DNA from: an uncultured archaeon
Lineage (GTDB): Archaea > Asgardarchaeota > Lokiarchaeia > Sigyniarchaeales > Promethearchaeaceae
Length of the DNA stretch: 5,382 bases
Assembly: GCA_964426185.1 (NCBI GenBank)
Contig: CAYRPF010000064.1
Coordinates: forward strand, 14,584-19,965
Reading direction: 5' to 3'
This document shows positions 1 through 5,382 of this stretch, one piece after another; the first letter of the stretch is position 1, and the number at the start of each line of letters is the position of its first letter. Under the pieces are notes generated by a model. That model saw only the letters and a program-made list of their open reading frames with translations, did no database searches and was not told where the DNA came from. The translations under genes were made by a program, and so were the position numbers.

Positions 1-593
1 GTAATTTCAATTTCTCCGCGTGCAGATGGTTTCAACGATTTTGCAAACTCAACAACCCTCTCATCGTAAAAATATAAACCTGGAATTGCATAATTTGATT
101 TCGGCTGCTTTGGCTTTTCTTCCAGCGAAATAACGTTGTTATTCTCATCAAATTCCACCACACCGAATTCTTGTGGATTATTCACATAATATCCAAATAT
201 TGTTGCACCTTTTTCCAGATTGCGGGCATTAGCAAGAATGTGGCTGAATCCTTGCCCATAAAATACATTATCCCCCAAAATTAACGCCACTTTATCACCC
301 GCAATGAACTCTTCCCCAACAATGAAAGCATCCGCCAATCCACGAGGTTCAGTTTGCACCTTATAAGAAAGTTGAAGACCAATTTGAGAGCCATCTCCAA
401 GCAACTCTTGATAAAAAGGTAGATTGCGAGGATCAGAAATAATCAATATTTCTCGAATATCCGCCAGCATTAATACCGAAAGCGGGTAATAGATCATGGG
501 CTTATCATAAATTGGAAGAAGCTGCTTGCTGACAACTTGCGTGATGGGATAAAGACGGGTGCCCTTACCACCGGCCAAAATGATTCCTTTCAT
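1..593 (-). CDS. rfbA: Glucose-1-phosphate thymidylyltransferase RmlA/RfbA, 3' end truncated by the window edge
   Basis: Hand translation from the ATG at 593 gives [44 protein letters not shown]...[14 protein letters not shown]...[11 protein letters not shown]...FGVVEFD...[21 protein letters not shown]...[12 protein letters not shown]. The frame is open for 197 codons to the edge. It has the LAGGx[23 protein letters not shown] and PSARGE motifs of RmlA. Confidence 0.97.
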
Positions 594-660: not shown

Positions 661-1620
661 TTATTTCAAGTTTTCCAGAATCAAGCGAGGTATGGCTTCA
701 GAAACTCCCTCGAAATTGGACCCCCACATTTGTTGAATTTTTTCTGTATTTAAAGAAGAATCTGCAGGCCTTATGGCTTTTTGCTTCAGTTCTGTAATTC
801 TCTCAATCGTTCCCAGTTTTAAACTACCTAATCTCCTATTTTTATTTTCTTTCTCACGTTTAGATATTATTGACTTGAGAATCTTCTCTACAAAAAATAA
901 TCGAGATACTGCTTCGGGTCCTGCTGTATGAAAAATCTTTGAATTCACGAAATTCATGGAATTCTCAGAATTCTCGGAATTCTCGAAATCTCGCATCCAA
1001 TAAAGGCACTCCGCTAAATTATCCACCAGAGTAGGTGTGGTTATCTGCCCGTCGATAATTGAAAGTCTTTTTCCCTCCAATAATGCTTTATAGGCCCACG
1101 AGAAGAAATTATCCCGTTGCCCCATATCCGGCCATCCATACAGCACACTCGTACGACATATGCGCGCTTGCACACCTTCTTCCATAATAAAGCGTTCTCC
1201 TTGAAGTTTTGTTTTTCCATAGACAGAAAGGGGATTCGGTTCATCTAATTCGGAATAATTTCCCTGCAACCCATCAAAAATGAAATCGGTAGAGATATGA
1301 ATCAATTTTCCACTAATTTTATTAACAGCGTGAGCCACATACTTTGGTCCGAGAGCGTTGATATCATAGGCACGGTTTGGGTAATCCTCGCAAGCATCTA
1401 CGTTGGTCATAGCTGCGGTTAAAATGGTGAGATCTGGCTTATTATCCGAGATTATTCGGAAAACTTCATCTGAATTGGTGATATCCATTGAAATTTGGGG
1501 ACAATCAAACGAAAAACCACTGAAATTAACATCTGCCCCCAATATATCATCGGTTGGTTGAAATCGGGCAATTAATTTTCGACCAAGAAAGCCGTTTGCA
1601 CCAATAATTAGTACTTTCAC
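661..1620 (-). CDS. rfbD: dTDP-4-dehydrorhamnose reductase RmlD/RfbD (extended SDR family)
   Basis: 319 aa, GTG start. It has the Rossmann GANGFLG, AAMTNVDACE, ISTDFIFDG (consensus STDYVFDG), catalytic YGKTK, PTLVDNLA and RPADSSL motifs. It lies between rfbB and rfbA. Confidence 0.92.
   Translation of the reverse strand: MKVLIIGANGFLGRKLIARFQPTDDILGADVNFSGFSFDCPQISMDITNSDEVFRIISDNKPDLTILTAAMTNVDACEDYPNRAYDINALGPKYVAHAVNKISGKLIHISTDFIFDGLQGNYSELDEPNPLSVYGKTKLQGERFIMEEGVQARICRTSVLYGWPDMGQRDNFFSWAYKALLEGKRLSIIDGQITTPTLVDNLAECLYWMRDFENSENSENSMNFVNSKIFHTAGPEAVSRLFFVEKILKSIISKREKENKNRRLGSLKLGTIERITELKQKAIRPADSSLNTEKIQQMWGSNFEGVSEAIPRLILENLK
941..985. repeat. Imperfect 9-nt tandem repeat, 5 units, in frame within rfbD
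   Basis: Units are GAATTCACG / AAATTCATG / GAATTCTCA / GAATTCTCG / GAATTCTCG, encoding ENSENSENSMNFVNS on the minus strand. Confidence 0.9.
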
Positions 1621-1719: not shown

Positions 1720-2775
1720 TTATTTGGTTAATTTAGTTCCATATTGTTTGGAATAATATTCTAAATATTCTCCTGTTATGCAGTGTTCTATCCATTCAGC
1801 ATGTTCAAGATACCATTTGATGGTTTCTTGCATTCCTGTTTCAAAATCATATTGTGGGCGCCATCCTAACTCTTTAGTTGCTTTTTCAAAGTTCATTGCA
1901 TAGCGTAAATCATGTCCAGGCCGATCTCGTACAAAAGTGATTAGATCTTCCCCTTTTCCAAGAGCCTTAAGTAAATATTTTACCATATTTAGATTAGAAA
2001 CTTCTGCATCGCCACCGAAATTGTATACTTCTCCCGCCTTACCCTTTTCCAACGCAGCTAAGATTCCACGACAATGATCCGTAACATGAATCCAATCACG
2101 CACATTCGAGCCATCTCCGTATACTGGTAGGGGTTTATCTGCTTGAATATTACGTATCATCAACGGAATGAGTTTTTCTGGAAACTGGTAGGGCCCATAA
2201 TTATTCGAACAGCGAGTAATCACTACAGGTAGCTGATACGTGTGGAAAAAGGCTTGTACTAACATATCAGCCGAGGCTTTACTGGAAGAATAAGGACTGC
2301 GGGGATGAATTGGCGTTTTTTCGGTAAAAGCAGGATCATTGAATCCAAGATGGCCGTAAACTTCATCAGTGGAGATCTGCACATATTTCTTGACTTGATG
2401 GCGGTATTTTTTAAAAGCGTTAAGCAAAGTGAGGGTCCCTTTCACGTTCGTATCTACAAAAACGTCAGGGTTGGAAATTGAGCGATCGACATGAGATTCA
2501 GCTGCAAAATTAATGATGGCTTCAATATTATATTCTGATAACAAGTAATCAACAAGTTCATAGTTGCAGATAGAACCTTTAACAAAATGATAACATGAGT
2601 GATTCACATAATCATGCAAATTTTCAGGATTTCCAGCATATGTCATTGCATCCAGATTCCAAATTTCAAAATCGGGATATTTTTCCAGAATTAGGCGGAT
2701 AAAATTACTACCGATGAAACCAAGTCCGCCGGTGATGAGTAGGTTCATTTTTTTTAACACATTTTTGGTAGGCAT
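1720..2775 (-). CDS. rfbB: dTDP-glucose 4,6-dehydratase RmlB/RfbB
   Basis: 351 aa with TGGLGFIG, DAMTYAGN, FAAESHVDRS, ISTDEVYG, YSSSK (YxxxK), CSNNYGPYQFPEKLIP, RDWIHVTDH and DRPGHDLRYA motifs. An alternative start is the ATG at 2748 (MNLLITGG). Confidence 0.97.
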   Translation of the reverse strand: MPTKNVLKKMNLLITGGLGFIGSNFIRLILEKYPDFEIWNLDAMTYAGNPENLHDYVNHSCYHFVKGSICNYELVDYLLSEYNIEAIINFAAESHVDRSISNPDVFVDTNVKGTLTLLNAFKKYRHQVKKYVQISTDEVYGHLGFNDPAFTEKTPIHPRSPYSSSKASADMLVQAFFHTYQLPVVITRCSNNYGPYQFPEKLIPLMIRNIQADKPLPVYGDGSNVRDWIHVTDHCRGILAALEKGKAGEVYNFGGDAEVSNLNMVKYLLKALGKGEDLITFVRDRPGHDLRYAMNFEKATKELGWRPQYDFETGMQETIKWYLEHAEWIEHCITGEYLEYYSKQYGTKLTK

Positions 2776-2946
2776 TATCGATGTTTTAAAATAAATGTTG
2801 GTGCTTTTATATAGATTTGCATTAATTTATTTGCTTTTAATAATCAAAATTATTCATGCTTAAAACATTTGATTTCTAAACTTTTAAAAGAATTCTTCAT
2901 TGCTTAAATTATATTAAAAGAAATTCATTAGACTTAGGTTAATTTT
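2776..2946. promoter_or_regulatory. Divergent promoter region between rfbB and cysD
   Basis: Very AT-rich 171-bp gap between head-to-head genes. It contains minus-strand TATATAAAA (2805-2813) about 30 nt upstream of the rfbB ATG and plus-strand TTATATTAAA (2909-2918) about 30 nt upstream of the cysD ATG. The individual elements are tentative. Confidence 0.6.
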
Positions 2947-3828
2947 ATGGAACATCTTGATAAACTCGAAAATAAAAGCGTGCATATCCTTCGGGAAGCA
3001 TATGCGCAATTTAAAAATCTCGGCATGCTATGGTCTATTGGAAAAGATTCAACCGTACTTCTATGGCTTACACGAAAAGCTTTTTTCGGTCACGTGCCAT
3101 TTCCACTCATTCACATCGATACAGCTTATAAAATTCCAGAAATGATCGAACACAGAGATCGTTTGGCAATAGAATGGAATTTGGATATGATTTACGGTCA
3201 AAATCAAGAAGCATTGCGTTTAAAACAAACTTTTCCCGATGGAAATGCCACCAGATTAGAGTGTTGTAAAAATCTCAAAACACTCGCCTTGGAAAATACT
3301 TTGAATGGGCATTGGCCTCGATATCGCATGAATCACACCACCGGAAAATACGAGGTGGATAAAAATACTGAACCATTTACCGGAATTATTGTAGGAGTGC
3401 GCGCCGATGAAGAAGGTAGCCGTTCTAAAGAGCGCTATTTCTCCCCACGGGACCGAAACAACGATTGGAATATCGAAGAGCAGCCACCTGAATTTTGGAA
3501 CCAATATAAAACAGATTTTGCACCCGGAACTCATGTTAGAATCCATCCCTTGCTAGATTGGACTGAGTTGGATATATGGGAGTATATCGAGCGCGAAAAT
3601 ATTCCGATAGTTTCATTGTATTTAGACCAAGGAGAAGGTACCCGTTATCGTTCTTTGGGATGCTGGCCGTGTACCAAACCTGTGAAATCTGATGCAAAAA
3701 CGGTGCATGAAATCGTTGTAGAACTCCGAACGGGAAAATATTCAACCATTGCAGAGCGTGACGGCAGAGATCAAGATAAGGAAGATGGGGGCGGTTTGGA
3801 AGCCCTGCGTCGGGATGGATACATGTAA
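2947..3828 (+). CDS. cysD: Sulfate adenylyltransferase (ATP sulfurylase) subunit 2, CysD (PAPS-reductase superfamily PP-loop fold)
   Basis: 293 aa with [13 protein letters not shown]-loop [65 protein letters not shown] and a CysD-type C-terminus ERDGRDQD...LRRDGYM. It is followed after 25 nt by cysN. Confidence 0.95.
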
Positions 3829-3853: not shown

Positions 3854-5382
3854 ATGACAAATAATACGAATAGCCCAGATAACACAAATAAAACATCATT
3901 AAATTCAATATCAAAACATTATCGAGACGAACATATGAATGTTGCGATCGTCGGGCATGTAGATCATGGAAAAAGCACCATTATCGGGCGTTTATTGGCT
4001 GATACCAATTCTCTTCCGGAAGGAAAACTCGAACGTGTCAAAGAAACTTGCCGTAGGAACTCTAAACCTTTTGAATATTCCTTTTTACTCGACGCTTTAA
4101 AAGACGAACAAGCACAGGGGATAACCATCGATGCGGCACGTGTTTTCTTTAAAACCCCCAAACGAAAATATATTATTATAGACACACCCGGACATATTGA
4201 ATTCTTGAAAAACGTGGTCACCGGTGCATCACGCGCCGAAGCTGCACTATTGGTAATCGACGCACATGAAGGTATTCAAGAAAACTCTAAACGTTACTGC
4301 TATATGCTTTCAATGTTGGGAATCAAGCAAATTGCGGTTCTAATCAATAAAATGGATTTGGAAAATTACTCCGAAAGCCGCTACAATCAAATAAAATCAG
4401 ATTACGCAGAATTTCTCAAAAATCTTAATCTCCAACCGACGGCTTATATTCCAGTTTCGGGTAAAGAAGGGGATAATATAGCGGTAAAAACTTCTAAAAT
4501 GCCTTGGTATACTGGTTATACCGTACTGGAACAATTAGATCTGTTTTTGACACAGAAAGATCCTGAAAATCAAGATTTCCGGATGCCGGTGCAAGATGTT
4601 TATAAATTCACAAAAGACGGGGATAACCGCCGAATAATAGCGGGCACAATTATCAGTGGACAAATTTCGGTGGGCGATGAGGTTCTATTTTATCCATCTA
4701 ACAAGAAAAGTCGCATAAAAAGCATCGAAAGTTTTAATACAACTCCAAAATCAACTATTGGTGCGGGTTATGCAACCGGAGTAACTATCACCGACCATCT
4801 CTATTTAAAACGCGGTGAAATGATGATTCGCGCTGATCAACAGAAGCCAGAAGTGACTTCGAGAATCAAAGCAAATATCTTCTGGTTGGGGCGAAATCCT
4901 TTTATCATGGGCAAAAATTACCTGCTTAAAATCGGAGCCCAAAAAATAGAGATGGAACTGGAAAAAGTAGAAACCGTCATTGATGCTTCCAGTTTGGATT
5001 ATCAGAAAAAGGATCAGGTGAATCGACATGAAGTTGCCGAAGTCATCTTAAAGCTGAAATCTCCTATAGTTTTCGATCTCCCTCATGTTAACGTGTTGAC
5101 TTCCCGATTTGTAATTGTAGACGAATACGAAATTTGGGGTGGTGGGATTATTTCGGAGAGTTTATCTGATACTAAGAAAGCCTTTCGAGATAAGTTAATG
5201 ATTCGCAATTATAAATGGGAACGCTCCTTGGTTAACATTGAAGATCGAGCAGAGCATTATAACCAAAAATCTTGCTTGATTCTCATCACGGGAGAAAAGG
5301 CTGTGGGAAAGAAGGCATTTGCCAAATCCTTAGAGAAACGTTTATTCTTAGAAGGCAAACATACTTACTATTTAGGTATCGG
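3854..5382 (+). CDS. cysN: Sulfate adenylyltransferase subunit 1 (CysN GTPase) fused to a C-terminal APS-kinase-like domain (CysNC/NodQ architecture), 3' end truncated by the window edge
   Basis: Hand translation is open for 509 codons to the edge. It has G1 GHVDHGKS (3953-3976), G2 QGITID, G3 DTPGH, G4 [19 protein letters not shown], domain [11 protein letters not shown], domain III ending [17 protein letters not shown], then [44 protein letters not shown], resembling the start of CysC. It lies directly after cysD. An alternative start is the ATG at 3935. Confidence 0.92.
3857..3892 (+). repeat. Degenerate 9-nt periodic repeat at the 5' end of cysN
   Basis: ACAAATAAT / ACGAATAGC / CCAGATAAC / ACAAATAAA, encoding [12 protein letters not shown]. 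Confidence 0.5.

Follow-up and report, generated by a model that had tools for sequence, protein, structure and literature searches.

The window, a stretch of 5,382 nt that forms the end of contig C64 in an Asgard genome of 3.26 Mb and 92% completeness, contains a cysD-cysN pair that diverges from three dTDP-rhamnose genes, rmlB-rmlD-rmlA (Table 1); four glycosyltransferase genes of the GT1/GT4 and GT2 types lie farther upstream on the same contig. The start of cysN, for which 3785, 3815, and 3854 are candidate start codons, falls within 26 nt of the cysD stop, and the gene was recognized by GTP_EFTU (E 4.5e-46) and TIGR02034 (345 bits, cut-off 336). Across 80 related loci, a cysN homologue was found in 79, and the order cysD-then-cysN was seen in most.

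Table 1. Features of the window, with positions counted from its first letter.
Feature	Position	Strand	Description
rmlA	3-593	-	Pfam NTP_transferase; dTDP-rhamnose gene; truncated at window edge
rmlD	661-1620	-	Pfam RmlD_sub_bind; dTDP-rhamnose gene
rmlB	1720-2775	-	Pfam GDP_Man_Dehyd/Epimerase; dTDP-rhamnose gene
rmlB/cysD divergent intergenic region	2776-2946	.	171 bp, AT-rich; GC 0.29-0.31 around
cysD	2947-3828	+	293 aa; predicted adenylyl-transferring catalytic subunit of CysDN ATP sulfurylase, short four-Cys form
PP-loop SIGKDST, residues 30-36	3034-3054	+	ATP pyrophosphatase-type nucleotide-binding motif; inside PF01507 match
Cys106-Cys107 tandem pair (TGT TGT)	3262-3264 and 3265-3267	+	Candidate cluster ligands 1 and 2
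Lys111	3277-3279	+	Four residues past the CC pair; invariant alignment column
R233-Y-R-S-L-G-C239-W-P-C242	3643-3672	+	CxxC pair; Tyr and Ser context common to APS reductases
ERxGR loop, E270-R-D-G-R274	3754-3768	+	Common to sulfonucleotide reductases; aligned by hhalign onto CysH ERAGRW
cysN	3854-5380	+	GTPase subunit and start of degenerate APS-kinase-like tail; truncated at contig end

The cysD product has a single Pfam domain, PAPS_reduct (PF01507, E 4.5e-37), and scored 349.1 bits against the NCBIfam CysD model NF003587 (cut-off 195). It fell under the narrower, proteobacteria-centred models TIGR02039 (240.6 vs. 396.6 bits) and NF009214 (239 vs. 413 bits), and the APS/PAPS-reductase models were all well under their cut-offs (TIGR02055, 48.4 vs. 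235.3; NF002537, 64.7 vs. 154). By sequence, the nearest solved structure was Pseudomonas syringae CysD (1zun_A; phmmer E 2e-52), and the same chain was the top fold match (Foldseek E 8e-18; VIA Z 24.9) of an AlphaFold2 model built from a 38-sequence alignment (pLDDT 89.4), superposing with an rmsd of 1.3 Å over 192 residues at 47% identity; the next fold matches were sulfonucleotide reductases, specifically 4bwv (Z 21.4), 2oq2 (20.2), 2goy (19.8), and 7lhr (18.2). Because the family scores, the fold match, and the adjoining cysN agree, the gene is identified as a genuine CysD, the predicted sulfate-activating catalytic subunit of the GTP-coupled enzyme. Consistent with the initial annotation, which had described a CysD-like tail without the C-terminal ECG(L/I)H of reductases, the protein ends in ..LRRDGYM, and its translation has no catalytic Cys of that motif and no Cys at all past residue 242; the two CysH outgroup sequences carry ECGLH and ECGIH.

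Translation of the gene gave just four Cys, C106, C107, C239 (codon 3661-3663), and C242 (codon 3670-3672), with 131 residues between the CC and CxxC pairs; the residue numbers, nucleotide coordinates, total, and spacing given in the initial annotation were all exact. The chance of four Cys landing at random on four named positions of 293 is ∼1 in 3×10^8. Lys111 is invariant across all CysD forms and CysH and pairs with the K of the CysH CCxxRK, and E270 and R271 are almost invariant in the CysD alignment.

Several comparisons placed these Cys on the cluster ligands of assimilatory APS reductases, as had been claimed. Against the Mycobacterium tuberculosis APS reductase 7lhr, phmmer aligned the query CC onto phECCrlrkv and the CxxC onto ypsigCapCt; hhalign matched the CysD profile to a Gemmatimonadaceae CysH (with ECGLH) at 99.3% probability, pairing CC with CC, LGCwPC with LGCwPC, and ERxGR with ERaGRw; and the fold alignments to 2goy and 7lhr (Z 18-20) covered the CxxC segment. 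The local context Y-x-S-x-G-C-x-x-C, together with a Lys four residues after CC, was common to four-Cys CysD and CysH, and at positions 234 and 236 the four-Cys CysD had the Y and S of CysH, whereas classical long CysD had F and T. In APS reductases, CC...CxxC marks the presence of the 4Fe-4S cluster, iron content falls when Cys of the tandem pair are changed to Ser, and the sulfate of APS has been proposed to interact with the cluster; Pseudomonas, Mycobacterium, and plants have cluster-bearing enzymes of this kind (Carroll et al., 2005; PMC1175818). Judged by these alignments and the structural model, the four Cys of the window CysD coincide with those that ligate [4Fe-4S] in assimilatory APS reductases, and the four thiols would be expected to converge. 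Compared with the [4Fe-4S] CysH/APR enzymes of Pseudomonas aeruginosa (2GOY) and M. tuberculosis (7LHR), the window CysD thus shares CC...CxxC in homologous alignment columns, the Lys/Tyr/Ser context, the ERxGR loop, and the PP-loop fold (Z 19.8 and 18.2); it differs in having no ECG(L/I)H Cys and scores far under the cut-offs of the reductase models, its tail is specific to CysD, its partner is CysN, and its predicted chemistry is adenylyl transfer, whereas the reductase reduces.

The initial annotation had suggested that the motif might be shared across a wider clade, and it proved to be the rule in a very large one. Among the best 120 database matches (78-100% identity), from sources including Ca. 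Harpocratesius, Promethearchaeota, Lokiarchaeum ossiferum, Clostridium spp., Peptoclostridium, Desulfitobacterium, and Spirochaetes, GCxPC was kept in 120/120, and CC was recovered in 111 by a strict pattern search and in all by later alignment. Both motifs were also kept in 80 of 80 loci from named species genomes, among them Clostridia, Halanaerobiales, Ilyobacter, Thermodesulfobacteriota, Omnitrophota, Elusimicrobiota, Acidobacteriota, Bacteroidales, Woesearchaeota, and Gemmatimonadaceae. A pooled set of 207 distinct close homologues (71-100% identity), which included Clostridia, Fusobacteria, Spirochaetes, Gemmatimonadota, Omnitrophota, and Asgard archaea, had the four Cys together in all 207 and no fifth conserved Cys column, in line with co-conservation of the four Cys, which the annotation had named as a check; however, 106 of the 293 columns were ≥99% invariant in this set, so the Cys invariance there is weak evidence by itself. 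More divergent sequences came from searching the representatives of 50%-identity clusters exhaustively, with 327 clusters found at E up to 1e-30; within the best 150 of these, C-C-C-C was present in 24 of 60 near-full-length representatives, and the 23 that were clean, nearly full-length four-Cys sequences had a mean pairwise identity of 43%. On the sequence evidence, keeping all four Cys is the norm in a CysD branch that is large, widespread, and apparently unstudied, and the window gene is an ordinary member of it. No account of a cluster-binding CysD was found in searches of the freely available full-text literature.

The rest of the near-full-length representatives fell into distinct subtypes or were frameshifted fragments. 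The subtypes were the classical long form, with (H/Y)T...GCxPL and a 35-residue segment where the window CysD has 7; VT...GCWPI; a Cys-free RA/RS...GE/GD..I; and an actinobacterial-looking SR...GDxxC. Lineages without CC usually also had no C242 (HT/YT..C..L, VT..C..I, RA..E..I, PS..C..T), a co-loss that is descriptive, comprising four independent contrasts only, one of them on starred branches. Because representative P0178 reads FF...CxxC, and because the long classical-type CysDs of two sampled gammaproteobacterial genomes (L121 and L124) have CxxC...CxxC, the site tolerates other arrangements. These two proteins have a 34-residue insert and a GYF tail, and their Cys set reads S-C-S-L-C-A..KT and GCQRC; it may form an independent metal site in the equivalent position.

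The initial annotation had described E. coli-type CysD as having no CC pair and a single Cys in GCWPLT, and the sequences agree: the 25 long forms in the tree, mostly from sampled Gammaproteobacteria, had (H/Y)T at 106/107 and GC(Y/W)PL at 239-242, and P. syringae CysD aligned with ..HTDIM..KT and LGCYPLT. The window CysD and this long form (1ZUN chain A) have in common the NF003587 assignment, the fold, the PP-loop, the Lys of ..KT, the RxRxLGC motif, the ERxGR loop, a GY(M/F) C-terminus, and a cysN partner gene. They differ in that, in the 1ZUN type, (H/Y)T replaces CC, Leu replaces the second Cys of CxxC, F and T stand at Y234 and S236, and a ∼28-residue insert (35 vs. 7) lies just ahead of RFRTLGC; unlike the classical form, the window CysD also falls under the TIGR02039 cut-off (241 against 397 bits).

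A quick maximum-likelihood tree, inferred from 84 rows with two CysH as the root, nested the long classical clade (support 100) in a grade of four-Cys forms. A single clade of four-Cys CysD was, however, not rejected by an AU test (p 0.725), and the tree constrained to four-Cys monophyly was better by 20 lnL; a polarity of the four-Cys state drawn from tree topology was therefore dropped. Because CysH and short CysD share the four columns in like context, the four-Cys state is nevertheless probably ancestral, a retained feature shared with CysH, and independent gain of the four-column arrangement appears much less likely than loss. The evolutionary link between ATP sulfurylase and APS reductase proposed in the initial annotation is more aptly described as retention of a shared feature.

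What the four Cys hold can be argued from their context. That a metal is bound, that the metal is [4Fe-4S], and what role the cluster plays are all points that we infer from sequence, and two other fates of the site deserve weighing. One is that no metal is bound and the inherited Cys serve as a thiol/disulfide redox switch or in packing only, which would accord with the cluster-free CysD and PAPS reductases that function well on the same fold, and with the second-best fold match, Physcomitrella APR-B (4bwv), a cluster-free APS reductase. The four Cys are, however, kept across a clade of ∼43% mean pairwise identity (50%-cluster representatives) and are usually lost together, not singly, and an ordinary disulfide is difficult for a tandem CC; we consider this reading rather unlikely. 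The other is that the four Cys coordinate Zn2+, or some other lone metal ion, in a structural role, bracing the RYRSLGC loop. Sites of four Cys that include a CxxC typically bind Zn, Zn fingers accompany Fe-S sites in some of the PP-loop proteins matched by fold (TtuA, for one), and the CxxC...CxxC variant of the long form (L121 and L124) is more like a Zn knuckle; yet the window CysD reproduces the positions and context (CC, Lys at +4, Y-x-S-x-G-C-x-x-C) of the proven APS-reductase [4Fe-4S] site, and a tandem CC is an unusual geometry for tetrahedral Zn, which leaves a Zn site improbable in our estimation.

The reading that we favour, and hold to be reasonably probable, is of a functional CysD that works with CysN, carries a Cys-held, non-redox [4Fe-4S] cluster at its sulfate/APS pocket, and in this genome provides PAPS for sulfation. 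The complex of CysD with the CysN GTPase would make APS from sulfate and ATP. In CysD, C106, C107, C239, and C242 would ligate a [4Fe-4S]2+ cluster lying, with Lys111 and the ERDGR loop, next to the pocket in which the sulfate moiety of APS binds. There the cluster would organize or polarize the pocket, a structural and substrate-positioning role of the kind proposed for APS reductase, without redox turnover. E. coli-type CysD would have lost three of the four Cys and acquired the ∼28-residue insert just ahead of the motif in the cluster's stead; since that form works cluster-free, the cluster cannot be chemically essential to adenylyl transfer. The APS made by the window CysD would then pass to PAPS and to surface glycan sulfation in the Lokiarchaeia genome.

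To assess the distribution of the short and classical types, genomes were sampled with the window protein as query, and the short type was called by ≥61% full-length identity, not by per-sequence reading. By this measure, 23 of the 27 CysD-bearing genomes among 250 sampled Clostridia had the short type, as did 3 of at least 35 among 250 Gammaproteobacteria and 19 of 36 among 151 Gemmatimonadota. Two unpublished genomes, G862 with the short type and G902 with the classical one, enter the last tally; when they are left out, the short type stands at 18/34 and the classical at 8/34. The short type is thus enriched in anaerobes and not limited to them. The initial annotation had raised a possibly O2-sensitive form; read as restriction to strict anaerobes, this was rejected, since the short type is the commonest CysD in the sampled Gemmatimonadota. 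Pseudomonas, Mycobacterium, and plants, whose APS reductases carry the corresponding cluster, are aerobes. Within Asgard archaea CysD was patchy, occurring in 5 of 301 sampled genomes and in 3 of 3 of the window's own genus. Because of this patchiness, the place of the window CysD within a well-supported bacterial clade, and its 83% identity to Clostridium, inter-domain transfer of the cysDN pair is suggested.

The genome offers some indication of what the enzyme is for. No NIR_SIR sulfite reductase was found in the 92%-complete assembly, nor was a CysH-type reductase; the two other PAPS_reduct matches, an 880-aa PUA-PAPS_reduct-ferredoxin protein and TtuA, are neither of them CysH. One Sulfotransfer_3 gene is present. 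Because no CysH or sulfite reductase was found, and because a Sulfotransfer_3 gene, a CysQ-CysC fusion, and the rml/glycosyltransferase locus are all present, the window CysD most likely supplies PAPS for surface-glycan sulfation, not cysteine synthesis. This organization resembles NodP/NodQ-type sulfate activation in that cysD-cysN(C) lies in a glycan locus with the sulfotransferase elsewhere and no reductive pathway was found in the genome; unlike the NodP/NodQ type, CysN here has a degenerate kinase-like tail, and the genuine APS kinase is part of a CysQ fusion encoded on another contig.

The intact APS kinase forms the C-terminal half of a 472-aa CysQ (Inositol_P)-CysC fusion (G000:C80, L099:72-1487, minus strand), encoded on a different contig from cysD; a fusion of the opposite order, the 456-aa CysC-CysQ, adjoins cysD in Clostridiales loci such as L033. 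The P-loop of the CysN tail (window positions 5288-5314 and 5369-5380) reads TGEKAVGKK against TGLSGSGKS in the genome's real CysC, and YLGIG stands where the kinase has RLDGD; the counterpart domain of Clostridium carboxidivorans CysN scored only 36 bits to PF01583. From its sequence, the APS-kinase-like domain at the CysN C-terminus appears catalytically inactive. The 880-aa protein (G000:C13, L082:517-3159, minus strand), with PUA, PAPS_reduct, and a C-terminal 4Fe-4S ferredoxin domain, groups with archaeal ‘hypothetical’ PRK13795-like proteins. Upstream on C64, within the glycan locus, are three large open reading frames (L098:606-3335, 3380-8149, and 11798-13312) of 910, 1589, and 505 aa, which are candidates for parts of the surface-glycan machinery; the 910-aa and 505-aa frames had no Pfam match.

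Other carriers of the short-form CysD present a different picture, and on gene content it serves assimilation there. Clostridium loci are ordered ABC transporter, AprA-like flavoprotein, ferredoxin, cysQ, cysD, and cysN, and related loci of Peptoclostridium, Vallitaleaceae, and Ilyobacter add a NIR_SIR sulfite reductase; the short form was also found in sulfotransferase operons (ASST, Sulfotransfer_3). The AprA-like flavoprotein (∼560 aa) and a small 2x[4Fe-4S] ferredoxin are encoded directly upstream of (cysQ-)cysD-cysN in Clostridium, Peptoclostridium, and Ilyobacter loci (L002-L006, L009, L011, L026, L030, and L038). Because of these upstream genes, and because CysH was absent from 4 of 5 other genomes examined with short-form CysD, an AprAB-like assimilatory route of APS reduction is suggested in such carriers. 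The same absence of CysH, from the window genome and from those 4 of 5, could be read together with the reductase-type cluster motif as the mark of a hybrid enzyme that also reduces APS to sulfite and stands in for the missing reductase. This reading is highly improbable: the motif uses all four Cys and the catalytic ECG(L/I)H Cys is missing, the TIGR02055 APS_reductase score is 48 bits against a cut-off of 235, the clostridial loci have their own AprA-like flavoprotein, ferredoxin, and sulfite reductase, and no sulfite reductase was found in the window genome to use the sulfite. Hidden reductase activity was thus rejected, there being no fifth, catalytic Cys.

Favouring, as above, a [4Fe-4S] cluster at the sulfate/APS pocket, we also advance a broader proposition, more tentatively and at close to, though not quite, an even chance: that the short-form CysD, the usual form in Clostridia, Gemmatimonadota, and many further phyla, is at large an Fe-S enzyme that needs its cluster to bind sulfate/APS, that the ancestor of CysD and CysH bore a cluster, and that the cofactor-free E. 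coli form is a derived exception. Textbook accounts of bacterial sulfate activation centre on CysDN, for which the model structures and kinetics were obtained with cofactor-free proteobacterial forms. Should the short-form clade bind [4Fe-4S], sulfate assimilation and PAPS-dependent sulfation would require Fe-S assembly at their first step in many phyla, gut Clostridia, soil Gemmatimonadota, and Asgard archaea among them, and that step could be oxidant-sensitive; across much of the microbial world, sulfate activation would be tied to Fe-S supply and vulnerable to oxidants. Such an enzyme would also provide a second, non-redox system for examining the debated part played by the APS-reductase cluster, and would favour a cluster in the ancestor of the CysD/CysH superfamily. 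The interest attaches to the clade, within which the window gene is unexceptional.

The short-form CysD is, finally, unusually conserved over phyla and domains, and more so than its CysN partner. Across 74 related loci, CysD had a median identity of 77% to the window protein, and the partner CysN from the same loci 62%.
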